DNA from: Candidatus Woesearchaeota archaeon
GTDB lineage: Archaea; Nanobdellota; Nanobdellia; SCGC-AAA011-G17; PNOQ01
Direction of reading: 5' to 3'
NCBI GenBank assembly: GCA_043812195.1
Contig: JBDRML010000024.1
Span: 1 to 30,928 of the forward strand
Length of the DNA: 30,928 nucleotides
The notes beneath the pieces were generated by a model, which was given only the letters and a program-made list of their open reading frames with translations, was not told the origin of the DNA and ran no database searches. A program made the position numbers and the translations under genes. Below are positions 4,906-30,928 of the stretch, one piece after another. The stretch's first letter is position 1. Each line of letters opens with the position of its first letter.

Positions 4906-5687
4906 AAATTAAACTTAGTCCAATATTGAAAAAAGGAAAAGCAATCTACTTAGCTTATGATCAAGGTTTTGAGCACGGACCAATTGATTTTAATGATAAA
5001 AACATAGACCCAGATTATATATTTAATATAGCACTCAAAGGAAAATATAATGGAATAATAGTTCATAAAGGAATAGCAGAAAAATACTACACAAAAAAAT
5101 ACAAAAAAATTCCATTAATAGTAAAATTAAACGGTAAGACTAAACTTCTAAAAGGAGAACCACTTTCAACACAACTTTGCACTGTTAACGAAGCAAAAAA
5201 ATTAGGAGCAAAAGCAGTAGGCTATACTATTTATGTTGGTAGTGCATACTCACAAAAAATGTTCCAAGAATTTGAAAATATTCAAAGAGAAGCCCATAAA
5301 ATAGGTATACCAGTTATAGCATGGATGTATCCAAGGGGAAAAGCAGTAAAAAAACCACAATCAAGAGAAATACAAGCTTATGCAGCAAGATTAGGTTTAG
5401 AATTAGGAGCAGATATGATAAAAATGCATATATCTAACAATATGAAAGATTTCAAATGGCTAGTTAAATCAGCAGGAAAAGTAAAAGTCTTTGTAGCAGG
5501 AGGACCAAAAGCATCAACAAATAAATTATTAGAAAATACTTATAATTATATGAAAAACGGAGCATACGGAATAGCAATCGGAAGAAACATCTGGCAATAC
5601 AAAGAACCTCTTAAAATAACAAAAGCCTTAAAAGAAATTATTTTCAACAATAAGACACCAAAGCAAGCAATGAAATATTTAAAATAA
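4902..5687 (+). CDS. fba: Class I (DhnA/archaeal-type) fructose-bisphosphate aldolase
   Basis: LAYDQGFEHGP, WMYPRG, ELGADMIK (Schiff-base Lys), AGG, GRNIWQ. Confidence 0.9.
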   Translation: MKIKLSPILKKGKAIYLAYDQGFEHGPIDFNDKNIDPDYIFNIALKGKYNGIIVHKGIAEKYYTKKYKKIPLIVKLNGKTKLLKGEPLSTQLCTVNEAKKLGAKAVGYTIYVGSAYSQKMFQEFENIQREAHKIGIPVIAWMYPRGKAVKKPQSREIQAYAARLGLELGADMIKMHISNNMKDFKWLVKSAGKVKVFVAGGPKASTNKLLENTYNYMKNGAYGIAIGRNIWQYKEPLKITKALKEIIFNNKTPKQAMKYLK

Positions 5688-6664: not shown

Positions 6665-7285
6665 ATGATAATAATAAATTTCAAAAATTACAAAAGAGGA
6701 AAAGAAACTTTAAAACTAGCCAAATTAATAGAAAAAATAAATAAAAATATTATAGTAGCAGTACCATCAGGAGATTTAGAAGAAGTTTCTAAAAAAACAA
6801 AATTAAAAGTCTATGCTCAACATGTAGACTACAGAGAACCAGGAAAAGGAACAGGTTATGTAATCCCAGAAGAACTTAAATCACTAAAAGTAAAAGGTTC
6901 AATAATAAATCATTCAGAACACAGAATTCCAAAACAAGCAATCAAAAAAACAATACAGAGATTAAAGAAATTAAAACTCAAATCAATAGTCTGCGCCAAA
7001 AATTTAAAAGAAGTAAAAGAATTCAAAAAACTAAAACCTTATGCAATAGCTTACGAAGATCCTAAATTAATATCAACAAAGAAATCAATAACAGAATACA
7101 ATAAAGAAAGCGTAATTAAATTCTCAAAATTATTAAAAAATACAAAGATAATCCCAATTTGCGGAGCAGGAATAAATAAAAAAGAAGATATAGAAGAAGC
7201 CAAAAAATTAGGCTGCAAAGGTGTATTAATTGCTTCAGCAATAGCTAATGTAAAAAACCCAGAGAAATTATTAAAACAACTCTAA
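6665..7285 (+). CDS. tpiA: Triosephosphate isomerase, short archaeal type
   Basis: INFKNY, AQH, NHSEHR, AYED, CGAGI, GVLIASA. Confidence 0.93.
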   Translation: MIIINFKNYKRGKETLKLAKLIEKINKNIIVAVPSGDLEEVSKKTKLKVYAQHVDYREPGKGTGYVIPEELKSLKVKGSIINHSEHRIPKQAIKKTIQRLKKLKLKSIVCAKNLKEVKEFKKLKPYAIAYEDPKLISTKKSITEYNKESVIKFSKLLKNTKIIPICGAGINKKEDIEEAKKLGCKGVLIASAIANVKNPEKLLKQL

Positions 7286-7324
7286 AAAACAAAGATTTAA
7301 AAAGATAATATTCCAATTAAAAAT

Positions 7325-7591
7325 ATGAAAGAAAAATATTTTATGGATGTTGTAATAAACAAAGAAAAATTAAGTGATGGAAGCCCTATTTTTGTTGCTC
7401 ATTGCCAAAGCTTAGGTATAGCTAGCCAAGGCAAAGATATGGAAGAAGCAATGAAAAACATTAAAGAAGCAATTGAATTATATTTAGAAGAACAACCACA
7501 AAAATACAATGAGTTATCTACTAATGAATTACCTTTATTCTCTGTTATTGAGGTGATAAAGGATGCCAAAGCTGCCAATAGTGTCAGGTAA
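7325..7591 (+). CDS. hicB: HicB-family antitoxin
   Basis: ASQGKDMEEAMKNIKEAIELYLE motif; directly upstream of hicA. Confidence 0.85.
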   Translation: MKEKYFMDVVINKEKLSDGSPIFVAHCQSLGIASQGKDMEEAMKNIKEAIELYLEEQPQKYNELSTNELPLFSVIEVIKDAKAANSVR

Positions 7592-7790
7592 AGATGTTGT
7601 TAAAGCTCTTTATAAAATTGGCTTCAAACATGTAAGAACTAAAGGAAGTCATGCAATATTAAATAAACAAACCAAAAAAGGCAAGATGACAATACCAGTT
7701 CCATTACATAAAGAACTTGCTAAGGGAACATTAAAAAGTATAATGAAGCAAGCAGATTTAGATCTTGAAGATTTTATAAAGTTAATCTAA
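7563..7790 (+). CDS. hicA: HicA-family toxin
   Basis: GF...KGSH, VPLHKEL..GTLKSI. Confidence 0.9.
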   Translation: MPKLPIVSGKDVVKALYKIGFKHVRTKGSHAILNKQTKKGKMTIPVPLHKELAKGTLKSIMKQADLDLEDFIKLI

Positions 7791-7792
7791 CT

Positions 7793-8731
7793 CTAAATCC
7801 ATTTTTTCTTTCTAAAAAATACAACCATAATCATCATAGACATAAGCATTAAAACTATTGGAATAAAAAATCCATATTTTTGACCAAAAAAAGGAATATT
7901 AGCAAAGTTCATTCCCCATATACCAGATATCAACATAGGCAATAATAATAAAGAAGCAATAACTGAAAATGACCTCATAATATCATTTAACTTATTAGAA
8001 ACACTAGTCATATACATATCAAAAACACCAGTCAATTTTTCATCATACAATCCAACTAAATGTTCTGTCTGAGTAGCTTCAATAATCAACTCACTAATAC
8101 CATTTTCATAACCTTCTCTAATTAATTTAGAATCAACTTCATTTAACTTATTAATAGCACTCATATTAGCTCTAATAGCTCTCCTCATAAACATAAACTG
8201 TTTTTTAATAGAAAATAAATCACTCATATCTTGTGCAGTTCCCTTTAATATCTTATCTTCTACTTTATTCAATTTATCACTTATTTTCTCTAATTCACCA
8301 TTAAATTCTCTAATAAATTCAGAAATAACTCTATTAAACAAATAAGCAACACCCATACTAAAAAATTCATGACCTTCCTTACTCAAACAAATATTAAAAA
8401 ATTTGTCCAAAGAACTAATAAGTTTAGGATGCACAGTCATAATATAATTTTTTCCAACAAAAACACCTATAGGAACGCTCTTCTTATCCTTAGTTAAAGC
8501 TCTCAATATAACAAAGCAATAATTCTTTCTCAACACAACCCTAGGAACTTCCTTAATATCTAAACTATCTAATAAATTTCTATCAGATACTTTCAAAGTT
8601 TTTACAATTTTACCTAATTCTTTTTTATCAGGATTATTAACATCTATCCAATAAGTTCCACTATTGAAATTAGCAGAATCAAGAGAACATTTTCTAGCAC
8701 TCTTTTTATCATGTTTTATACAACTAATCAT
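7793..8731 (-). CDS. corA: CorA-family Mg2+/Co2+ transporter
   Basis: WIDV, C-terminal GMNF and two TM helices. Confidence 0.93.
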   Translation of the reverse strand: MISCIKHDKKSARKCSLDSANFNSGTYWIDVNNPDKKELGKIVKTLKVSDRNLLDSLDIKEVPRVVLRKNYCFVILRALTKDKKSVPIGVFVGKNYIMTVHPKLISSLDKFFNICLSKEGHEFFSMGVAYLFNRVISEFIREFNGELEKISDKLNKVEDKILKGTAQDMSDLFSIKKQFMFMRRAIRANMSAINKLNEVDSKLIREGYENGISELIIEATQTEHLVGLYDEKLTGVFDMYMTSVSNKLNDIMRSFSVIASLLLLPMLISGIWGMNFANIPFFGQKYGFFIPIVLMLMSMMIMVVFFRKKKWI

Positions 8732-11611: not shown

Positions 11612-12168
11612 TTTAGCCTTTTTTCCCTTATCATTTTTTTAATCTTTTTAATCTCTTCTTCATCTATTAAATCACTATATACATCTCTTAAATGCTTTGC
11701 GTCTTCTAAATCTTTTGGGCTTTTTAAATATTCTTCTTTAAATGCAATATTCATATCAATTGAACTAAACCACACATCTAAACCCGTAAGTTTTAATTTA
11801 ACTCTTGTTGTTAACTGATAATCATCTAATTCATCTTTAGATAGTTTTATTTCCATTTCAGGCAATGGTCGATTTTTATAAGTATATCTCACACTTGTAT
11901 CATTTTTAAGATAATCTTTATATATTTCAGTAGGATCATCAGACTGCATACATACAAAATCATTTTTAATAAGATCATTATGCATTTTAATAAAAATATC
12001 TTTAGATATTTTTGGAATAATCATATCTATGTCTTCAGTTGCTCTAGCTCTACCAGATGAAATTGCAACAAAACCAGAAACAATTATATATTTAGTGAAT
12101 TTTTCAACTATCTCACAAAAATCAATACAAAACTTATCCAATACATTTCTTTTAGATTCTCCTCTCAT
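11608..12168 (-). CDS. Nucleotidyltransferase-fold protein
   Basis: IVSGFVA...RATEDID and C-terminal KDLED motifs. Confidence 0.7.
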   Translation of the reverse strand: MRGESKRNVLDKFCIDFCEIVEKFTKYIIVSGFVAISSGRARATEDIDMIIPKISKDIFIKMHNDLIKNDFVCMQSDDPTEIYKDYLKNDTSVRYTYKNRPLPEMEIKLSKDELDDYQLTTRVKLKLTGLDVWFSSIDMNIAFKEEYLKSPKDLEDAKHLRDVYSDLIDEEEIKKIKKMIREKRLK

Positions 12169-12217
12169 TGCATATTAATAAGGTTAATTTAGAATATAAT
12201 ACTTTCGCTGGTGGTTG

Positions 12218-13615
12218 TCAAGCATTTTTATATTTGGCAATTAAACTAGCAGCGGTTTTACCATCACATTTTCCCTTATATTTTGTCATTATAATTCCCA
12301 TCAAAGCGCCAATACTCAACTCTTTTTTATCCTTAACTAATTCTTTAATCTCTTTCTCTAATTTATTTAAATCAGCAGCTTGATAACTAGCCAAATTAAT
12401 TATTTTCCCTTTAGCTAAGTCAACCATCACATCAAAAACAGCATCTTTAGTTATTTTATTAGTAGAAAGTGCTTCCAAAACAAATCTAAAATCTTTATCC
12501 TTAAATTTATAATCAACATTCAATCTAGATTTCATATCTTTAGGAATTTCAACCAAAATATTAGCAATCAACTTTTTATCAATTCTATATTCATAATCTT
12601 CTAAATTAAATCCTTCCTTAACTAAACTTCTTGCTAACTCAGCACTTAATCCTTCTTTTTCATATCTTAAAATTTTCTCATCTATTAATTCAGGGACTTC
12701 AATACTCTTCAATAATTCTTTTGTTATAGCAATAGGTTTGACATCCGATTCTGGATACATGCGAGATGCACCAGGCATAGGTCTCAAAAAACTCGTAGTT
12801 CCATCAAGCTCAGCCCTTCTTACTTCTTTCTTAACATTCCCTTTTAGTTGTCTCTTTATTTCATATTCAATAGTTGTTGGCATATGTCTCAAATCTTGAA
12901 AACCCTTTATTTCTACTCTATTTCCATTTTTTATAGAAACATTAACATCTTGACGAATAGACCCAATACCAGAAATTACCTTTCCAGTGCTTTTAAGTAT
13001 CATCCCAAGCTTTTCCGCCACTTCTTTTGCATGCTCAGCTGTTTTAATATCTGGTTCAGTTGCAATCTCAATTAAAGGAATCCCTAACCTATCTAATCTA
13101 AAAACTACACAATTTTTTTCATCCCTTACTCTCCTAGCAGCATCCTCCTCCAAACAAATACTACCAATTCTAACCTTCCCTTTAGAAGTTTCTATGAACC
13201 CATCGTGACCACACATTAGTGTTCGCTGAAACCCGCTAGTGTTGCTTCCATCGACTACAGTTTTTCTCATAACTTGAATTTCATCTACAATTTTGCATTT
13301 TAAGATCTTACAAACCTGCAAAACAACTTTTAAGGCATCCATATTAAGATCATTAGGCGGAGATTCATCAAATTCAACTAGACAATTAGTATCCCTATAA
13401 GCTTCATAATTAAATTCCCTTCTTTTCAAACTTTCATAAAAAGCAGCTTCATCTATACTTCCAAGCTCCCCAGCAACAGCCCTCAATGCCCTAATCAATA
13501 AAATATCATGAGGATCATCTCTTAAAATAGTCGGACACTCACAAAATAATTTTTTCCCAGATAATTGCTTATGAATTTCTAAACCACATTTGAACTTTAA
13601 TTTTTTATAATCCAT
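12218..13615 (-). CDS. gatE: Glu-tRNA(Gln) amidotransferase subunit E
   Basis: GLEIH, KLFC, DGSNTSGFQRT, LEEDA, LDRLGIPLIEI, RQDVNVSI, RMYPE. Confidence 0.96.
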   Translation of the reverse strand: MDYKKLKFKCGLEIHKQLSGKKLFCECPTILRDDPHDILLIRALRAVAGELGSIDEAAFYESLKRREFNYEAYRDTNCLVEFDESPPNDLNMDALKVVLQVCKILKCKIVDEIQVMRKTVVDGSNTSGFQRTLMCGHDGFIETSKGKVRIGSICLEEDAARRVRDEKNCVVFRLDRLGIPLIEIATEPDIKTAEHAKEVAEKLGMILKSTGKVISGIGSIRQDVNVSIKNGNRVEIKGFQDLRHMPTTIEYEIKRQLKGNVKKEVRRAELDGTTSFLRPMPGASRMYPESDVKPIAITKELLKSIEVPELIDEKILRYEKEGLSAELARSLVKEGFNLEDYEYRIDKKLIANILVEIPKDMKSRLNVDYKFKDKDFRFVLEALSTNKITKDAVFDVMVDLAKGKIINLASYQAADLNKLEKEIKELVKDKKELSIGALMGIIMTKYKGKCDGKTAASLIAKYKNA

Positions 13616-25256: not shown

Positions 25257-25494
25257 ACACTTCTCAATATTTATTCATTTATAAAAATTGTGTCTTCTTT
25301 TCCCACCGCCCCAAATCTTCTTTTTTAGAAAAAAAGAAGCAAAAAAGAACGCGCACCTCAAATTTAATAGGATGGCTAAAAACCCACCTGAAATAAGAGA
25401 GATTTTAGAAATATCATAACGGAGAATTAGAAACTTGCTCCGTTTCACTCCGCACCACGCCTTGCAGGCTTTCATAAAATCAAAGATTTTATTC

Positions 25495-25522
25495 AGGTCG
25501 CTGAACAGGGCTTATGTGCAAT
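25495..25522 (+). repeat. dif-like site S1
   Basis: AGGTCGCTGAA-CAGGGC-TTATGTGCAAT. Confidence 0.75.
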
Positions 25523-25523
25523 A

Positions 25524-25796
25524 TTACTCGGGCTTTGGAATTATAGAAAATCTATCTTCCATTTCTTTTAAAATCGCATTCCGATCATCCCACATTGTAA
25601 CAGAATCACAAGCTCTATTTCTAACACTGTCATACATTACAACTTTCTTATTCGTCGACCAATTGGGAAGATGTCTATATTCCTTAGATAATAATGTAGA
25701 AAATTCGTCATTAATTTCAATTACAGCGTCACGGTTACTATCTCGAGCGGCTGTAACCATTCTTTCCAATGTTTGGTATATTTGTGATTCCGACAT
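25524..25796 (-). CDS. Cassette 1 hypothetical protein (90 aa, MSESQ...KPE)
   Basis: Start moved to ATG 25796; TTTATATA box at 25820-25827; the longer track ORF runs through the linker. Confidence 0.7.
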   Translation of the reverse strand: MSESQIYQTLERMVTAARDSNRDAVIEINDEFSTLLSKEYRHLPNWSTNKKVVMYDSVRNRACDSVTMWDDRNAILKEMEDRFSIIPKPE

Positions 25797-25888
25797 GTTT
25801 ATACAGTAATTTGAACCCATATATAAATATATTCCAAAGTCCTGTGTCATACTGTCGGTCGCTTCGCTCCCTCGTTCGCCTTGCAGGC

Positions 25889-25916
25889 TCACCACATAAC
25901 AGCGATTAGTTTCAAT
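25889..25916 (+). repeat. dif-like site S2
   Basis: TCACCACATAA-CAGCGA-TTAGTTTCAAT. Confidence 0.8.
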
Positions 25917-25961
25917 TCAAAAATCGTGCTCCCAAAGTTATTCGAGGCAAGAATTGTTATT

Positions 25962-26105
25962 TTATTTAAATTCTAGAGTTTTATAAAGAATTTTTGGTTC
26001 TATTTGAGAAGCTCTTACCATAGCATCTGCTCTTTCATAACCTGCTCTTAATTCAGCTTCTCTTTCTCTTACCATAGCATCTGTATCTATCATTATGTCT
26101 ATCAT
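25962..26105 (-). CDS. Cassette 2 micro-protein (47 aa), absent from the ORF track
   Basis: MIDIMIDTDAMVREREAELRAGYERADAMVRASQIEPKILYKTLEFK; BRE/TATA CCGAAAGTTTTAAATA upstream; fills the space between two inverted-repeat pairs. Confidence 0.65.
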   Translation of the reverse strand: MIDIMIDTDAMVREREAELRAGYERADAMVRASQIEPKILYKTLEFK

Positions 26106-26279
26106 GTTTTTAATAAAATAACACTACTATTTAAAACTTTCGGTTATTAGTCTTTTAATAGTAGTTACAATTCTTGCCTCTCAATATTCTAAATTCCCGT
26201 CCACCCATGCACAATTTTTGAACTCGAGATTTTTCGGCTTCGCCGAACATTGCATTAAAATCTCGTCCTCATTACATTC

Positions 26280-26307
26280 GAAGAAACTAACACTAATTAT
26301 GTGCAAT
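26280..26307 (+). repeat. dif-like site S3
   Basis: GAAGAAACTAA-CACTAA-TTATGTGCAAT. Confidence 0.8.
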
Positions 26308-26322
26308 AAAAATGAGTTGCCC

Positions 26323-26646
26323 TTATTCTTTACGTTCAAACTCTACAAGAATATCAACATTCTCATAATCACAAGTAATATTTAAACCTTCAAGGTTTGA
26401 AATCTCGCATTCACATCTGCTCTTGTCAACATAGCCTATACAATTTTCCCAAGTAGGTGTATCATAGGTAATTTGTTCCACACTAACTTTGAAACCGTAA
26501 CAAGGACACTTTATGGAACCTAATAGACCCATTACATTATTGGCATCATACGAAGTTCTTTTGGGGTAAAAAAATATCGCCAGTAAAATTAGAATAATAA
26601 TTATGAGGATTATTGCTTTTCGGTTCTTAAAAAAAGAAACATTCAT
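26323..26646 (-). CDS. Cassette 3 membrane-anchored Cys-rich protein
   Basis: Start moved to ATG 26646 with a TATA box upstream; N-terminal TM helix and six Cys. Confidence 0.7.
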   Translation of the reverse strand: MNVSFFKNRKAIILIIIILILLAIFFYPKRTSYDANNVMGLLGSIKCPCYGFKVSVEQITYDTPTWENCIGYVDKSRCECEISNLEGLNITCDYENVDILVEFERKE

Positions 26647-26790
26647 AAAAAAATTAGAGATAATAGAAATATATAAATCTATTGCTTCGGGCAACTCATT
26701 TTTACTTCTCTAAATCTTGATGTTAAACGAAATAATGCTCAGCACAAAGTGAATAGAAAACTTTATATTATCTATTAATAAATTAATGAT

Positions 26791-27051
26791 ATGCAATGGA
26801 AAGAATTTTTTAAACCAAACATTTTCAAGATTATTTTAACAATTATCTTGTTAATTGCGTCACTTTATGGAATATATTATTTGATTTTTTCTCTGTCATA
26901 TTATGTTGGCGAATGTGTTCCAGGTAGTTCATGTCCTAATTTCTCTGAATTAGCACTAAAAGGCGTTCTCTACTCTTCTATTCCTGCACTTTTAATCAAT
27001 TATTTAATTTCCTGTATAATATATTCAATATATAAAAGAATCAAAAAATAA
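26791..27051 (+). CDS. Cassette 3 second gene, small two-TM protein
   Basis: Two TM helices around a CVPGSSC loop; TTTATA box upstream. Confidence 0.7.
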   Translation: MQWKEFFKPNIFKIILTIILLIASLYGIYYLIFSLSYYVGECVPGSSCPNFSELALKGVLYSSIPALLINYLISCIIYSIYKRIKK

Positions 27052-27096
27052 AAATTATTTCCCTAATTCATTTCTTTTCAGTCGCTTCGCTCCTTC

Positions 27097-27124
27097 AGGG
27101 CACATAACAGCGATTATACTCAAT
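27097..27124 (+). repeat. dif-like site S4
   Basis: AGGGCACATAA-CAGCGA-TTATACTCAAT. Confidence 0.8.
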
Positions 27125-27202
27125 TTTCTTCCATATTCACTCCAGAAAACTCAAAAATCTTAATATCAGACAAGCTGATTTAATAATATTTTGGCCTTAA
27201 CA

Positions 27203-27230
27203 GGCGAGTCTAACACTAATTATGTACAAT
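27203..27230 (+). repeat. dif-like site S5
   Basis: GGCGAGTCTAA-CACTAA-TTATGTACAAT. Confidence 0.8.
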
Positions 27231-27231
27231 A

Positions 27232-27501
27232 TTACTCGACCGCCGCCTTTAATTTCTGTAAAAGTTGTTTTATTTCATCTATCTCAATATGCAGAATTTT
27301 CGGTTCTTTTCTTCCCTCAATTTCATCCATCACAGAGAATCCGTCAATCACATCTTGTGTTTCGCCATTTAGTTTTTTATATGCCTCAAATTCTTCGTTT
27401 AGAAATCTACTGCAAATTTCCGCAATTTCTTCTCTAATCTTTCCACTATCGTTCTGGATTAGGTCTTCCAGTTTCTCAATTAATTTACTTATCAATTCCA
27501 T
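27232..27501 (-). CDS. Cassette 5 small acidic helical protein
   Basis: ORF with TTTATATA upstream; stop lies in the conserved TATTACTC. Confidence 0.7.
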   Translation of the reverse strand: MELISKLIEKLEDLIQNDSGKIREEIAEICSRFLNEEFEAYKKLNGETQDVIDGFSVMDEIEGRKEPKILHIEIDEIKQLLQKLKAAVE

Positions 27502-27573
27502 AACGAAATGAAAAACATGATACTATATAAAACTTGTGCGGCGGTCTGCGTCATACTATCCCCTCGCTATCGC

Positions 27574-27601
27574 TCGACACATAACACTGATTAAGTTCAA
27601 T
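27574..27601 (+). repeat. dif-like site S6
   Basis: TCGACACATAA-CACTGA-TTAAGTTCAAT. Confidence 0.8.
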
Positions 27602-27636
27602 TTTCTTCCATATTCACTACAGAAAACTCAAAACCC

Positions 27637-28074
27637 TTAATCTCTAAAAATATACTCGCCTTTTTCTTCGTAAACAATCGCTCCCTTAAACGGCTCTTTT
27701 GTTTTATAAAGAGGCGACTGATATGCCTGATTCAGAATTCCAGCAACCTCATCAGCAGTATCTTTATTAGTTCCGTTAGGATATGTTGCTTGTAACATGT
27801 AATTTATACCATCTTGTTTTGCTTCTTGAGCAAGAGCAGTTAATCTCTTGTCGCCTTCTATGTTATCCATACCTTCAATTAAAGAAAGTTCTAACTGAGA
27901 GGGTGTTCTAACAAGTTCGCGAATTGTATGTAATTCTGTTTCAATTTCTTGTTTTGAAGCATCGCAATAAAAAAATCCATATGCTTTTCCAATTTGTTTA
28001 GCCATGTGACTCTCTCTAGTTACTTTATTGCCTTTTTTATCAATAAATGCATATGATTTAATTTCTTTTTCCAT
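27637..28074 (-). CDS. Cassette 6 hypothetical protein
   Basis: ORF with CGAAAGGTTTATATA BRE/TATA upstream. Confidence 0.75.
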   Translation of the reverse strand: MEKEIKSYAFIDKKGNKVTRESHMAKQIGKAYGFFYCDASKQEIETELHTIRELVRTPSQLELSLIEGMDNIEGDKRLTALAQEAKQDGINYMLQATYPNGTNKDTADEVAGILNQAYQSPLYKTKEPFKGAIVYEEKGEYIFRD

Positions 28075-28213
28075 ATTATTACTATGTATTAATAAGTATA
28101 TAAACCTTTCGTTTTATAACTACTCAATAGAGACTATAAACTATTAACTAAGCCAGCCCGAACTCTCCTTCCGCTTCGCTTCAGTCGGGACGTTACACTT
28201 TTTCCTTCGGAAA

Positions 28214-28241
28214 ACCACGCAGAACAGACATTATGTAACAT
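28214..28241 (+). repeat. dif-like site S7
   Basis: ACCACGCAGAA-CAGACA-TTATGTAACAT. Confidence 0.75.
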
Positions 28242-28313
28242 ATTACTCGGCAACCTTAACTTTCTCACCGATAGTTTTATTAGAACATTATGTATAATAG
28301 TCAACAACTAAAA

Positions 28314-28730
28314 ATGACAGAAAAATACTATATTGATACGTCAATTTGGATAGACCTTGTTGAAGATAGAAAAGGCTACAACGACGAACCATTAGGAAGT
28401 TATGCTCTTAAACTATTTGCTATGATTAAAGCCAAGAAACACAAAATGGTTGTTTCTGATCTTTTAATCAGAGAATTAGAATCGAATTATTCCATGGAAG
28501 AGATTAATGGAATGATGCTTCCGTTTCAAAAAATAATGGAAAAAATATTTGTCACTAAAGAACAACATGATGAAGCCAAAAAAATCGCCGAAGAAAGAAA
28601 TCTACCTCCAAGTGATGTGCTTCATGCAATTGTAGCAAGAAATAACAATTATACCATGATCACTAGGAACAAACACTTCAAGGAGTTAGAAGACATTACT
28701 AAACATTCAAAACCAGAAGAAATCATCTAA
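28314..28730 (+). CDS. Cassette 7 PIN-domain (VapC-like) protein
   Basis: YIDTSIWID, ELE, DVLHA, ITRNKHF; start moved to ATG 28314. Confidence 0.88.
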   Translation: MTEKYYIDTSIWIDLVEDRKGYNDEPLGSYALKLFAMIKAKKHKMVVSDLLIRELESNYSMEEINGMMLPFQKIMEKIFVTKEQHDEAKKIAEERNLPPSDVLHAIVARNNNYTMITRNKHFKELEDITKHSKPEEII

Positions 28731-28984
28731 GTATTTTTAGAAATTTCTTCAAATGCTTTAGCTCTTATCTTCTCATAATCTTTTTCTGTTGTCTTTTTCT
28801 TAACGCTACCTTTTAGATGAACTAATTCCATCATTGCTTTCTTTAACTTAATCTCTTCAACTTTCTCTCTAAGAGCATTCCTAATAAATTCTGTTCTATT
28901 TTGGTAGCCTTCATTCTTTACGACTTTGTCTACTTCTCCCAAAAATACATTATCCATTTTGACAGTTATCATCTCCGTTACCAT
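28727..28984 (-). CDS. Cassette 7 ribbon-helix-helix (CopG/NikR-like) protein
   Basis: ITVKM...VDKVV...GYQNRTEFIRNALR. Confidence 0.88.
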   Translation of the reverse strand: MVTEMITVKMDNVFLGEVDKVVKNEGYQNRTEFIRNALREKVEEIKLKKAMMELVHLKGSVKKKTTEKDYEKIRAKAFEEISKNT

Positions 28985-29127
28985 ATAGCCATTGCATATA
29001 CAATAACTATATAAACTTTTCTATCATTTTCTTATAAAATACATAATGTCACTATAAATCGATCAGCTCAGACGGTTGCCTGCGTCATAACGCTGACATC
29101 TTCGATGTCAGGTGGAACATAAAGCTC

Positions 29128-29155
29128 CATTTGCATAATACCAATTATACTCAAT
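29128..29155 (+). repeat. dif-like site S8
   Basis: CATTTGCATAA-TACCAA-TTATACTCAAT. Confidence 0.8.
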
Positions 29156-29208
29156 AAATTTGTAGCCCGAGATATTATTTGCTTATTCACTTGTAGAACA
29201 AAATAAGC

Positions 29209-29604
29209 CTAGTCATCAAGAGGAGTAAAATATTGCTCGAAGAGTTCCATGCTTTTTCGGAGATAGCGAGCCTCTTGGTCCGATTTATCCTCTTTTGCTT
29301 CGTAAAGCTCAGAAGCTCGTGTGTATGATCTCGCTTGGCTGGTTAACAAGTCGTTAGCCCAGGCTTCTAGGTCGTCAGCGGTCGTGTAAGGTAGTAAATG
29401 TACATTGCGATCTTTTCCCATGAATTCCATTTCTCCATAAAGACCAGCACAAGCTCCAGAGTGAACAAGATACCTCAACGTGATTCCTTCATTCAATCTA
29501 AATCTTCGACTGTTGACCATTACTTCTGTGCCGGCTTCTATTTGGTATGTGCCGCTTCCGTCAGGGAAGACACCCAATTTCACTTCTATTGGTGATAGTT
29601 CCAT
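29209..29604 (-). CDS. Cassette 8 hypothetical protein
   Basis: ATG 29604; enclosed by two nested inverted-repeat pairs. Confidence 0.7.
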   Translation of the reverse strand: MELSPIEVKLGVFPDGSGTYQIEAGTEVMVNSRRFRLNEGITLRYLVHSGACAGLYGEMEFMGKDRNVHLLPYTTADDLEAWANDLLTSQARSYTRASELYEAKEDKSDQEARYLRKSMELFEQYFTPLDD

Positions 29605-29754
29605 ATTCAAGGAGAACCTCTGCTTATTTTTATAATTATGGTTTTTACTCAGGCTACAAATTTACTTCTCCGCTCCTCGTTCACTTCGTGAACTGCGGTG
29701 CTCAACCCCATTGCATTCTCACCTCGTTTATTAACTTCGTTATAAACTCGGCTC

Positions 29755-29782
29755 GGGGAATATAACACCAATTAGTTACAAT
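29755..29782 (+). repeat. dif-like site S9
   Basis: GGGGAATATAA-CACCAA-TTAGTTACAAT. Confidence 0.8.
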
Positions 29783-29785
29783 CGC

Positions 29786-30415
29786 TCAGGGTCGCCTTGC
29801 ATATATTTCCCAAAAAGCTGATTTTTTACTTGGGAAATTTTCACTTACACCTTCAAAATCCTTTAATTTAATGATTTCATACCTTTTAAAGAATTCTCTC
29901 ATCTCTTCCTCTGCAAAATAATGATGAGGCATGTCTCCGTCAATGGAGTCAATATTAATTTTTGTATTTGGTTCAATTTCCTTACCAGTTAAATATTCAG
30001 GGTGTTTTGTTGATGGAACTCTCAGAAATAATACACCTCCTTTTCTTAATACTCTATAAATTTCAGAAATAGTTTTTTTTATTTTTGCTATTTTTCCATG
30101 TTCAATAACAAAATCGCATAAAACACCATCAAAAAAACTATCTTTATATGATAAAGAAGTCATATCACATTGTTTAAATTCAATTTCTTTTAAAATCTCA
30201 CGTGATATTTTTAATGCACTCTCCGATGAATCACAGCCATAAACTTGAAAACCTTGTTTTAATAAATAAAGAGTATGCCTTCCAGTTCCACAGCCCAAAT
30301 CGAGAATTCTTTCTAATCGTTCTTTTTTAAAAAAATCAGCAGCTTCAATAACTTTTATAGATGGTTCTTTCTGAACTATTCCTTTCTCTTTGTATAATGA
30401 ATCCCAATCCTTCAT
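29786..30415 (-). CDS. Cassette 9 class I SAM-dependent methyltransferase
   Basis: ILDLGCGTGRH, GCDSS, CDM, RVLRKGG. Confidence 0.9.
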   Translation of the reverse strand: MKDWDSLYKEKGIVQKEPSIKVIEAADFFKKERLERILDLGCGTGRHTLYLLKQGFQVYGCDSSESALKISREILKEIEFKQCDMTSLSYKDSFFDGVLCDFVIEHGKIAKIKKTISEIYRVLRKGGVLFLRVPSTKHPEYLTGKEIEPNTKINIDSIDGDMPHHYFAEEEMREFFKRYEIIKLKDFEGVSENFPSKKSAFWEIYARRP

Positions 30416-30507
30416 AATATAATAAAAAGTAATTTTAATATATAAATACTTCTATGGGCGACCTTGAGCGACTTTTCTACCGAAATTTTACCCCACTTCG
30501 TAGGGTA

Positions 30508-30535
30508 AAAGAAACTAACACCAATTATACAACAT
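30508..30535 (+). repeat. dif-like site S10
   Basis: AAAGAAACTAA-CACCAA-TTATACAACAT. Confidence 0.8.
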
Positions 30536-30537
30536 TA

Positions 30538-30789
30538 TTACTCGACAGAATTCCTATGTGGCTCCCAGTTCGGATTCCAGGTACCAGATGTAATCATTAA
30601 AGAGAATTCAAGTGCTGATTGCACTTAGCATAAAGACGGTTCTATTCTTTCATAACTTGCTCGGGCTGCTTCATAACTTTTCTGGATAAGTGTTTGCCCT
30701 GAATCAGAAACTATTCCAGCTAATGCTATAGCATAGAGTGATGTGGCCCCCACACCAACCAACAAATTAAGTCTTAAGTTCTTATCCAT
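30538..30789 (-). pseudogene. Cassette 10 gene (83 codons) with one in-frame TAA
   Basis: ATG 30789, hydrophobic N-terminus, TAA at 30625-30627, frame then stays open to the conserved GAG-TAA at 30538. Confidence 0.6.
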
Positions 30790-30928
30790 AAAGGAGATAA
30801 TTCATCAAGTTTTAAATGTTTATCGGAATTCTGCCTACGTCATACACAAAACCTTTATTGTCCTAATTCCGTTTCACTTCATTATAATCATAAATCTTTT
30901 GGTTTGCTCCATTTAACGCTCACTCTCC

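Follow-up and report, generated by a model that had tools for sequence, protein, structure and literature searches.

The window analysed here is one whole contig (C24, GenBank JBDRML010000024.1; 30,928 nt) from the genome of a Candidatus Woesearchaeota archaeon (DPANN group; G000; 0.94 Mb, 29.5% GC, 45 contigs). From ~25.3 kb to the contig end it is occupied by an integron-like array of small open reading frames (ORFs), mostly on the minus strand, each minus-strand ORF having its own TTTATATA-like TATA box, with non-coding linkers between the ORFs. We found that these linkers carry mini-hairpins that are real, enriched, one-sided and adjoin recombination sites with a dif-like core. The hairpin loops read TTC, TGC or TAC on the plus strand, which makes the minus strand the GNA strand; the mRNA sense of most cassette genes lies on this strand, too. 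We consider it roughly an even bet that the mini-hairpins are selected structural modules of the linker, which forms one arm of every recombination site, and our results suggest that a folded single-stranded DNA (ssDNA) state of the minus strand is the best reading of the array (probability about 0.5). The first-pass annotation of this DNA had related the linkers to recombination and the hairpins to a strand-specific structure, and both ideas held up, but it had missed the adjoining dif-like core and the link to the tyrosine recombinase XerA.

The last 141 nt of the window are 100% identical to one end of contig C37 of the same genome, and further linker-and-site units lie on C37 (down to ~10.1 kb), on C30 (1–1.3 kb) and at the end of C36. 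Per-strand counts compare the window array (5672 nt) with the rest of the genome (927,948 nt). Family-wide counts are based on 103 sites from 21 genomes, oriented by the core, of which 95 have distinct, complete 100-nt upstream regions (the other 8 were dropped as duplicates, for containing N or as too short); many of these copies are related and are not independent trials, although the signal lies well beyond what the controls give.

Hairpins, cores and clamps of the linkers

Along the plus strand, a site consists of clamp arm x', linker, left arm, spacer, right arm and then clamp arm x of the next cassette. The linker measures 20–90 nt, starts with ACTYT or CTGCGTCATACT and holds one to four hairpins with TTC, TGC or TAC loops; mini-hairpin elements on the minus strand include GCGAAGC, GCCTGCAAGGC and C(GAA)G hairpins. 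On the plus strand, linkers have 44.7% GC (genome 29.5%) and 58% pyrimidine. All hairpins and 11-nt mini-motifs named in the first-pass annotation are present. Perfect plus-strand triloops with 6-bp stems occur at 26233 (TTCGGC-TTC-GCCGAA), 28200 (TTTTCC-TTC-GGAAAA) and 29679 (GTTCAC-TTC-GTGAAC), and one with an 8-bp stem at 29093 (CTGACATC-TTC-GATGTCAG). TAAC-TTC-GTTA at 29732 is the core of the 29726–47 hairpin, GCCT-TGC-AGGC is found twice (25459 and 25878), and the mini-motifs lie at 25440, 25859, 26269, 27082, 29708 and 30869.

With stems of at least 6 bp, the window array has four TTC hairpins and no GAA hairpin, compared with 16 and 10 in the rest of the genome. With stems of at least 4 bp, the plus strand of the array has seven TTC/TGC hairpins, all in linkers, versus a single GAA hairpin, which is inside an ORF. 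The heptamers GCGNAGC and CCGNAGG occur five times on the minus strand of the array and never on the plus strand (0.88/kb in the array versus a background of 0.049/kb per strand), and the array pieces on other contigs gave 4:0 and 1:0 on the same relative strand. Counting by strand inside and outside the array thus revealed both enrichment and strand bias; since the TTC and heptamer counts are one-sided in the array against the genome background, they favour what had been claimed from the sequence at first. One further cluster of GNA mini-motifs was seen in the genome, a coding repeat on C16 near 127.6 kb.

In the 95 family linkers, 45 of the 87 triloops with stems of at least 4 bp are TTC, TGC or TAC (35, 8 and 2, respectively), the complementary loops amount to three (GAA 0, GCA 1, GTA 2), and 100 composition-preserving shuffles yielded 2.8 ± 1.5 TTC/TGC/TAC hairpins, with a maximum of 6. 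The order of GNA loops on the minus strand is GAA > GCA > GTA. The closing pair of TNC triloops is C-G in 40 of 56 cases, T-A in 15 and G-C in one, and the commonest tetraloop is TAAC (GTTA on the minus strand; 8 of 99). Homologous linkers have GC-GTTA-GC on C30 (~1143) at the position where the window (25859) has GC-GAA-GC.

The mini-motif, defined by its flanks and loop only (YC-NN-T[TGA]C-NN-TY), has 51 occurrences, and none on the opposite strand of the family linkers. Both stem pairs are Watson-Crick in 44 of the 51, versus 10.6 ± 2.6 after partner shuffling (maximum 21 in 2000 shuffles), which upholds the earlier claim of a co-varying minus-strand motif and places it on one strand only. 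Six types of paired stem were found (GC 19, AT 9, CT 5, AC 5, GT 3, CC 3), so that GC or CC stems make up 22 of the 44. The linker word GTTGCACT might pair with the right arm, as a pseudo-duplex or in the manner of a guide RNA, but it shows the co-variation of a mini-hairpin as well.

A sub-family with three helices is formed by ten linkers, hand-picked by eye from nine genomes, in which P1 encloses the TTC hairpin P2 and P3 abuts the left arm. Paired cells reach 87.1%, versus 73.7 ± 1.8% in shuffles, none of 500 of which attained the observed value; both sides are changed in 12 of 17 pairs, and slid-partner controls remain at or below 58%. A linker of genome G156 (5022–5113) is a mosaic in which the 5' half of P1 is of the G184 type and the 3' half of the window type. 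Its P1 helix is broken because the halves come from different types, and the switch point lies within the shared TCGGC-TTC-GCCGA hairpin.

Each linker is closed by a conserved word, (A/T)TAACA-S-Y-R-ATTA-NN-T-N-CAAT. In the core, a 6-nt spacer CA-NNN-A separates a left arm of 11 nt, which ends in TAA, from a right arm of the same length, TTAnnTnCAAT; the two arms are imperfect inverted repeats (idealised as ATTGCACATAA-CAGCGA-TTATGTGCAAT), and a site of genome G031, GGGAACTTAA-CACCGA-TTAAGTTCAAT, is a nearly perfect palindrome. All cores of the window point the same way, with spacers CAGCGA, CACTAA and CACCAA (two each), CACTGA and TACCAA. Allowing at most one mismatch, the core pattern was detected in 93 of the 240 genomes of the order and in 47 of the 107 good-quality ones, and a reversed-pattern control gave ~20 scattered matches. 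There are usually one to three copies per genome, often at contig ends, with clusters in G000 (11 pattern matches), G031 (10), G191 (8) and G019 (6). An inverted core behind the site was found in 2 of the 103 family sites, both on C30.

Compact, attC-like palindromes were also observed, made of a direct core, 35–100 nt with small hairpins and an inverted core whose spacer is 2–3 nt longer. They lie at C30:1168–1275, C30:212–315, C36 8415–8544 (contig end) and G031 C3 ~355–495. The first of these has a 2-nt bulge and folding energies of −22 to −24 kcal/mol (z −6.6 and −5.9), and the G031 unit adjoins xerA.

Cassettes are bracketed by private clamps. For nine cassettes we scored how far the 40 nt behind the core are complementary to the 40 nt in front of the following linker. 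True partners gave 11, 12, 15, 9, 5, 7, 15, 13 and 11 matching bases, versus 6.4 ± 1.1 (maximum 10) for the 72 mismatched partner pairs, and six of the nine true pairs exceeded every control. Clamp arm x adjoins or covers the stop codon, and arm x' is just upstream of the TATA box of the cassette; the pair brackets exactly the promoter and the ORF, and no single transcript from that promoter can therefore contain both arms. Several ORFs end in a conserved CGAGTAAT adjoining the core. Pfam named three of ten tested array ORFs: a PIN domain, an RHH protein and an SAM methyltransferase.

Sites of the window:
25428–25530 (+): site 0; linker with mini-hairpins at 25440 and 25459 and a hairpin at 25474–25492; degenerate core with spacer CAGGGC at 25506–25511 and right arm TTATGTGCAAT at 25512–25522, then ATTACTCG with the stop codon of a minus-strand ORF; 25323–25522 is 87.6% identical to a stretch of G019
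25844–25916 (+): site 1; linker from GTGTCATACTG with TC-GC-TTC-GC-TC (25859) and GCCT-TGC-AGGC (25878); core 25889–25916, ..CACATAA / CAGCGA / TTAGTTTCAAT; linker 93.5% identical in G191 (25841–25917) and 94% in contig C30 of the same genome
26222–26307 (+): site 2; P1 26225–26233 / 26257–26265 around the TTC hairpin 26233–26247, mini-motif 26269–26279; core 26280–26307, spacer CACTAA; P1/P2/P3 co-vary in 10 homologues
27078–27124 (+): site 3; short linker with TC-GC-TTC-GC-TC (27082); core 27097–27124, spacer CAGCGA
27203–27238 (+): site 4; core with spacer CACTAA and right arm TTATGTACAAT, then ATTACTCG
27547–27601 (+): site 5; linker from TGCGTCATACT; core 27574–27601, spacer CACTGA
28162–28249 (+): site 6; GC-TTC-GC at 28173–28179 and TTTTCC-TTC-GGAAAA at 28200–28214; degenerate core 28214–28241, then ATTACTCG
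29080–29155 (+): site 7; linker from CTGCGTCATAAC with the 8-bp TTC hairpin 29093–29111; core 29128–29155, spacer TACCAA
29664–29782 (+): site 8; linker ACTTCTCC... with TTC hairpins 29679–29693 and 29726–29747 and mini-motif 29708; core 29755–29782, spacer CACCAA
30471–30535 (+): site 9; linker ACTTTTCT... with hairpin 30486–30510, whose C·A mismatch on the plus strand is T·G on the minus strand and is kept in the G191 and G169 homologues; core 30508–30535, spacer CACCAA
30835–30928 (+): site 10; linker from CTACGTCATAC with mini-motif 30869; core past the window end, on C37

Cassettes of the window:
25523–25843: clamp GGGCTTTGGAAT near 25527 / ATTCCAAAGTCC near 25830 (11/12); ORF 25524–25799 (−) and TATA box
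25917–26221: nested clamps 25917–25929 / 26208–26220 (12/13, C·A on plus) and 25944–25957 / 26167–26180; small minus-strand ORF
26308–26703: perfect 15-bp clamp AAAAATGAGTTGCCC / GGGCAACTCATTTTT around ORF 26323–26694 (−)
27125–27202 (106-nt interval): ORF-less cassette before site 4
27231–27546: 9-bp clamp GACCGCCGC / GCGGCGGTC around ORF 27232–27501 (−)
28242–29079: clamps GGCAACC / GGTTGCC and 28270–28295 / 29039–29064; PIN 28290–28730 (+), RHH 28727–28984 (−)
29156–29663: 16–17 bp clamp 29155–29171 / 29648–29664 (one C·A on plus) around ORF 29209–29610 (−)
29783–30470: 14-bp clamp CGCTCAGGGTCGCC / GGCGACCTTGAGCG (one G·T on plus); SAM-methyltransferase 29786–30415 (−)
30536–30834: 11-bp clamp (G)ACAGAATTCC / GGAATTCTG(C)C; small minus-strand ORF inside

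The word ATTACTCG adjoins the right arm TTATGTGCAAT at 25523–25530, 27231–27238, 28242–28249 and 30537–30544. Because this word (CGAGTAAT on the minus strand) supplies the ORF stop, ORFs reach the recombination core and clamp arm x is partly coding. After the 15-bp clamp (26689–26703), the stretch 26704–26790 has a linker-like start, ACTTCTCT, with no core behind; it looks like a decayed site fusing two cassettes, ORF 26323–26694 (−) and ORF 26791–27051 (+). The PIN (+) and RHH (−) genes are convergent and their 3' ends overlap by 4 nt, unlike the usual co-directional VapBC operon, and the convergent pair recurs in the G031 array (C8, 11130–11897). On the same G031 contig (C8 ~11916–13044) a 111-nt ORF-less unit, composed of a right arm, a linker with GC-TAC-GC and AC-TTC-GT mini-hairpins and a left arm, is present in three tandem copies, with one more in the array.

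The recombinase and the probable movement of cassettes

Contig C36 encodes, at 7125–7919, a 264-aa tyrosine recombinase that is the sole XerA homologue in the genome (other tyrosine recombinases are 26–28% identical). Its best NCBIfam model is recomb_XerA_Arch (201 bits, under the cut-off of 220), its best solved relatives are the XerA proteins of P. abyssi (150.8 bits) and T. acidophilum (125.9 bits), and its best relatives are labelled Pacearchaeota or Woesearchaeota by their sources. Against V. cholerae IntI4 and the integron-integrase model it aligns in two separate parts, with ~38 residues missing at the IntI insertion (TIGR02249: 168 bits versus a cut-off of 265, in two stretches; residues ~169–192 face model or chain positions ~180–241). 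The gene is divergent from the first linker-core unit on C36, at a distance of ~500 nt. G031 C8, G043 and G132 show this divergent arrangement as well, the sites lying on the strand opposite to the gene and pointing away from it, and homologues of the recombinase in G019, G001 and G039 are at contig ends. The linker also accompanies a single xerA-proximal site, on G031 C3. The adjacency of the gene and the population-level joints described below suggest that XerA may bind and recombine the cores.

A core-like site, ..ATAA-TAGGYG-TTA.., was also observed at most ~100 nt upstream of the xerA start (C36 ~7965–7992; G031 C3 ~1395–1420). Its spacer is unlike those of the cassette sites, and the true dif of the chromosome may be this site.

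Four DNA runs from groundwater, each of a different study (metagenomes X1–X4), contain 56–89% of the sampled words of the array; one of them may be the source sample. In contigs of X1 and X3, the linker at the window end is followed by 21 further nt, the core at 27578 and the cassette starting there, which is a different cassette order with its joint inside the shared left arm and first four spacer bases. The summed depth of linker 25841–25908 is up to 951, versus ~7 for its flanks, with loose ends exactly at 25841 (the x'/linker border) and at 25908 (just past the TTA of the core); beyond 25908, contigs of X2, X3 and X4 carry a different right arm, which is also found on C30. An X2 contig is without 25858–27080 (1,223 nt), joining 25857 to 27081 via a shared 13-nt GTCGCTTCGCTCC, the mini-hairpin word, and X1 and X4 contigs have a 58-nt back-step (tandem duplication) at 27590–27647, just past the core at 27582. 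Between genomes, a cassette of the G031 array shares 73% identity over 723 nt with the PIN/RHH cassette, and the linker of site 1 recurs at 93.5% identity in G191, which belongs to another family; cassettes and linkers thus assort independently at cores. Judging from the variant joints, cassettes appear to be re-joined at cores in natural populations.

An A/T-rich hairpin, CTTCTTTTTT-AGA-AAAAAAGAAG, followed by CAAAAAAG, was observed at 25313–25347 and also matches loci of G184 and G047. The depth at 25328 is 769 in X1, 965 in X2, 163 in X3 and 3546 in X4, and loose ends lie at 25313–16 and 25346–47. High depth together with loose ends on both sides marks it as a ~34-nt element in many contexts.

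Single-stranded DNA and its alternatives

DNA mini-hairpins withstand heat and nucleases extraordinarily well, and their RNA counterparts are much weaker. Their stability rules are set out in the passages of PMC13037366 drawn on here. According to them, GNA is the only one of the 64 triloops of d(GCNNNGC) that forms a mini-hairpin, GC-GC or CC-GG stems are required, the closing pair is C-G and GTTA is tolerated. The melting temperature (Tm) is 69.5 °C for GCGTTAGC and 76.5 °C for d(GCGAAGC), compared with 39 °C for r(GCGAAAGC). Natural mini-hairpins act in ssDNA at the phage G4 origin, at RSF1010 ssiA and at phage N4 promoters (same passages). The minus-strand linker fits these rules in its loop identity, in its closing pair, in the sufficiency of 2 bp and in the GAA-to-GTTA swap. 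Together with the private clamps and the heterogeneity of the spacers, the rules make an ssDNA state plausible. As the spacers differ between sites, one-strand exchange is probable; the spacer differences within the array would impede a full double-strand exchange and fit single-strand exchange better, which by analogy they would leave unimpeded. One-strand exchange finished by replication has analogues in the CTX phage and in integrons, as outlined in parts of PMC3442271 and PMC4792948. Of the functions that the first-pass annotation had assigned to a folded minus strand, that of a recombination substrate is partly supported, whereas "nuclease shield" and "uptake signal" gained no specific support.

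A mechanism can be proposed. The hairpins would form when the minus (GNA) strand is single-stranded DNA, and if replication forks cross the array in the direction of xerA and dif, the geometry would make this strand the template of lagging-strand synthesis. The payload would be folded away by the private x/x' clamp together with C(GNA)G mini-hairpins, yielding a compact, strand- and orientation-specific shape beside the core. XerA or a partner protein might recognise this shape, or the shape might exclude single-strand-binding protein, a role that would resemble that of folded attC in integrons or of the folded attP(+) hairpin of the CTX phage for XerCD. Strand exchange would occur at the border of left arm and spacer, probably on one strand, and replication would complete it. 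In G132, which is a single contig, the site is at 562.5 kb and orc1/cdc6 at 234.5 kb, and the cumulative GC skew is noisy (minimum 5 kb, maximum 620 kb), which places the site neither plainly at a terminus nor plainly remote from one.

Several points weigh against an ssDNA state. The case for it is indirect, and its odds are even. AT-containing, weaker stems account for the other 22 of the 44 paired mini-motifs, 15 of the 56 triloops are closed by T-A, and stems such as GAGAAATC gave no melting transition as free oligos in the experiments covered by the cited passages of PMC13037366. DNA folds of eight window linkers (ViennaRNA) have weak z-scores (+1.0 to −2.2) that are much alike for the two strands; the minus strand has slightly lower folding energies, as do its shuffles, and the energy model may lack GNA bonuses. 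The clamp mismatches hardly differ between strands, since three would be G·T on the minus and two on the plus strand. Alignment A1 has four G·T mismatches on minus versus three on plus, the latter all from the hybrid row G156 (3 versus 0 after post hoc removal of this row), and a naive hairpin scan found eight G·T versus four A·C on plus, mostly in random AT-rich hairpins. The recombinase is without the IntI insertion (I2 helix), to which ssDNA recombination by integron integrases is credited (PMC7790495, in part). The window array is flanked by ordinary genes, with xerA on a different contig in this assembly. Ordinary double-strand Xer recombination could suffice, because each linker abuts a complete duplex-type 11-6-11 core. 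Finally, the same hairpins would exist in read-through RNA because the minus strand is mRNA-sense, and an RNA Tm of 39 °C may be enough in cold groundwater.

A role in RNA, which we regard as unlikely but by no means far-fetched, would place the folded hairpins in the 3' untranslated regions of minus-strand cassette mRNAs, for 3' exonuclease protection, for stopping read-through or for processing, with a link to the core by descent only. The minus strand carries most cassette ORFs, whose ends lie at or within the CGAGTAAT that adjoins the core, so that transcripts must enter core and linker unless they are terminated at once. Sheared-G·A loops of the GNRA type are common in RNA and r(GCGAAAGC) folds at the Tm given above (PMC13037366, cited passages), and the co-variation of P1/P2/P3 fits RNA and DNA alike. 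However, triloops dominate (GAA 35 of 45) and 2-bp stems co-vary, a pattern that the DNA rules fit better than a GNRA/UNCG preference does. The x/x' clamps span the promoter and are thus not in one cassette transcript, and ORF-less units keep full linkers (27125–27202 in the window; the 111-nt tandem units of G031). Behind plus-strand ORFs (26791–27051; one of 242 aa in G031 C3) the linker is the same and keeps its orientation to the core, which means that UUC loops would be present in their RNA. On the minus strand, the linker is rich in purines and is without the oligo-T tracts that archaeal terminators carry. Rfam 15, run on the whole window, gave no match at the gathering score and three at E ~0.55, all within ORFs; tRNA and tmRNA were looked for and none was found. 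None of the public runs listed as containing the array is an RNA run, and two metatranscriptomes from the study of X2 contain almost none of the sampled array words and are uninformative either way on RNA.

It is improbable, in our judgement, that the linker serves as double-stranded binding sites for XerA or a partner, with no strand folding and with a palindromic look that reflects dimeric binding, as in the accessory arms of cer and psi or the flanks of Thermococcales dif. The linker does occupy one fixed side of a complete 11-6-11 core and contains arm-like words (CTGCGTCATAC, GTTGCACTAA) resembling the left arm ATTGCACATAA, and conserved flanks and inverted repeats at archaeal dif are possible partner sites (Cortez et al., PMC2958812, in part). 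Against such duplex sites, stems vary freely while pairing and loops are kept (six stem types; 12 of 17 double changes), as a folded single strand would have it and not sequence-specific binding of a duplex; arms of 2 bp could hardly be half-sites, being too short, and private clamps 300–800 nt apart have no duplex rationale.

That the linkers are ordinary attC sites of an archaeal integron (Ghaly et al. 2022) is very improbable. The tandem small ORFs, the repeated sites, the nearby tyrosine recombinase, GTTRRRY-like words in the core on the minus strand and three compact attC-like palindromes elsewhere in the genome (C30:1168–1275, C30:212–315 and the C36 end) speak for it. Yet the window linkers have no R''-L''/L'-R' imperfect palindrome, each has a single direct core (an inverted one follows at 2 of 103 sites only), the 264-aa recombinase is XerA-type and without the IntI insertion, and the cassette ORFs point towards its gene. 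We rejected canonical attC sites on two grounds, the absence of a long stem in the window linker folds (z +1.0 to −2.2) and the one direct core of each linker. Chance or composition, by which linkers rich in GC and CT (44.7% GC, 58% pyrimidine on plus) would yield hairpins as a by-product, is hardly credible and was rejected by the composition-preserving (2.8 versus 45 seen), partner-shuffle (10.6 versus 44 seen) and slid-partner controls, the last of which collapse.

Significance and known systems

If the linkers fold as ssDNA, structured single-strand recombination is not an invention of integron integrases, and a plain Xer-type enzyme suffices. The setting would be archaea whose genomes are tiny and which rely on the exchange of genes. 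The DNA mini-hairpin, known from phage and plasmid priming sites and as a laboratory tool, would gain a role in chromosome biology, and the folding would explain how promoter-equipped accessory genes (toxin-antitoxin systems, methyltransferases, small membrane proteins) stay swappable. The core pattern and the hairpin-rich flank provide a search key for arrays that break metagenome assemblies and are missed by integron finders. More tentatively, and with more doubt than belief, we propose that DPANN archaea run a third single-strand cassette platform beside integrons and CTX-type elements, in which a plain XerA would recombine ssDNA-folded cassettes with the choice of strand and the polarity set by C(GNA)G mini-hairpins and the payload clamp; it would be the first cellular recombination system to use this mini-hairpin as a site determinant.

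A literature search for Xer/dif-type cassette arrays in DPANN archaea or the Candidate Phyla Radiation (CPR), which did not extend to the supplements of papers, found no description. What is new here is a GNA signature that is strand-fixed throughout the family, its agreement with the stability rules specific to DNA, the test of the window clamps and the population joints at cores. The array is an integron-like cassette platform that falls outside the integrons and that has the layout of dif but not its single copy.

Integrons, as portrayed in the parts of PMC9668308 used here, likewise have tandem small-ORF cassettes, structured sites between them and a tyrosine recombinase gene beside the array; their sites are alike within a genome while payloads differ, structure is kept more than sequence, the cargo includes toxin-antitoxin systems and methyltransferases, and cassette order varies between populations. 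Their attC site is a 55–141 nt imperfect palindrome, R''-L''...L'-R', that forms one hairpin with extrahelical bases. The window sites differ in having a complete 11-6-11 core and a one-sided mini-hairpin linker, with no long R''-L''/L'-R' hairpin. Integron cassettes are promoterless and are read from Pc, away from the divergent intI; the window cassettes, in contrast, have their own promoter, a private payload-spanning inverted repeat and ORFs directed towards the recombinase gene.

Archaeal XerA/dif shares the 11-bp imperfect inverted arms, the 6-bp spacer and an XerA-type enzyme (PMC2958812, PMC8371274, in part), as well as a conserved flank and a possible partner site (PMC2958812, in part). 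The dif site belongs in the replication terminus. In the passages cited, dif is single-copy and, in Thermococcales, not beside xerA (PMC2958812, PMC8371274), whereas the array type described here has at least 10 same-orientation copies with differing spacers that bound accessory genes. Similar to the proposed mechanism are CTX attP(+) and integrative mobile elements exploiting Xer (IMEX), in which one-strand exchange by a housekeeping Xer enzyme joins folded ssDNA to duplex dif, replication finishes the reaction and tandem arrays build up at dif (PMC3442271, in part). In CTX, two inverted dif-like sites fold into one duplex site, according to the same passages. Here, there is one direct core per linker, the folds lie beside the core, and the cargo consists of single genes, not phages.

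The pdif sites that flank a module are in inverted orientation, unlike the window sites, which are all direct, and pdif modules are plasmid-borne and served by the bacterial XerC/XerD. In pdif and IMEX systems the Xer enzyme of the host moves the modules; in the array described here, the variant joints suggest such movement. These Acinetobacter modules are otherwise similar, being small, often carrying toxin-antitoxin or resistance genes and being bounded by 11-6-11 Xer sites, and the passages on them cited here report no hairpin-rich linker (PMC7399989, PMC9771954). The mini-hairpins d(GCGNAGC) and d(GCGNNAGC) share with the window linkers the GNA or GNNA loop, the sheared G·A pair, the C-G closure and stems as short as 2 bp, and in the passages cited those known function only when the DNA is single-stranded (PMC13037366). 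The elements described here differ from those of G4, RSF1010 and N4 in that they lie beside a recombination core, on a cellular chromosome, with multiple copies per site and with AT-containing stems in about half of them.

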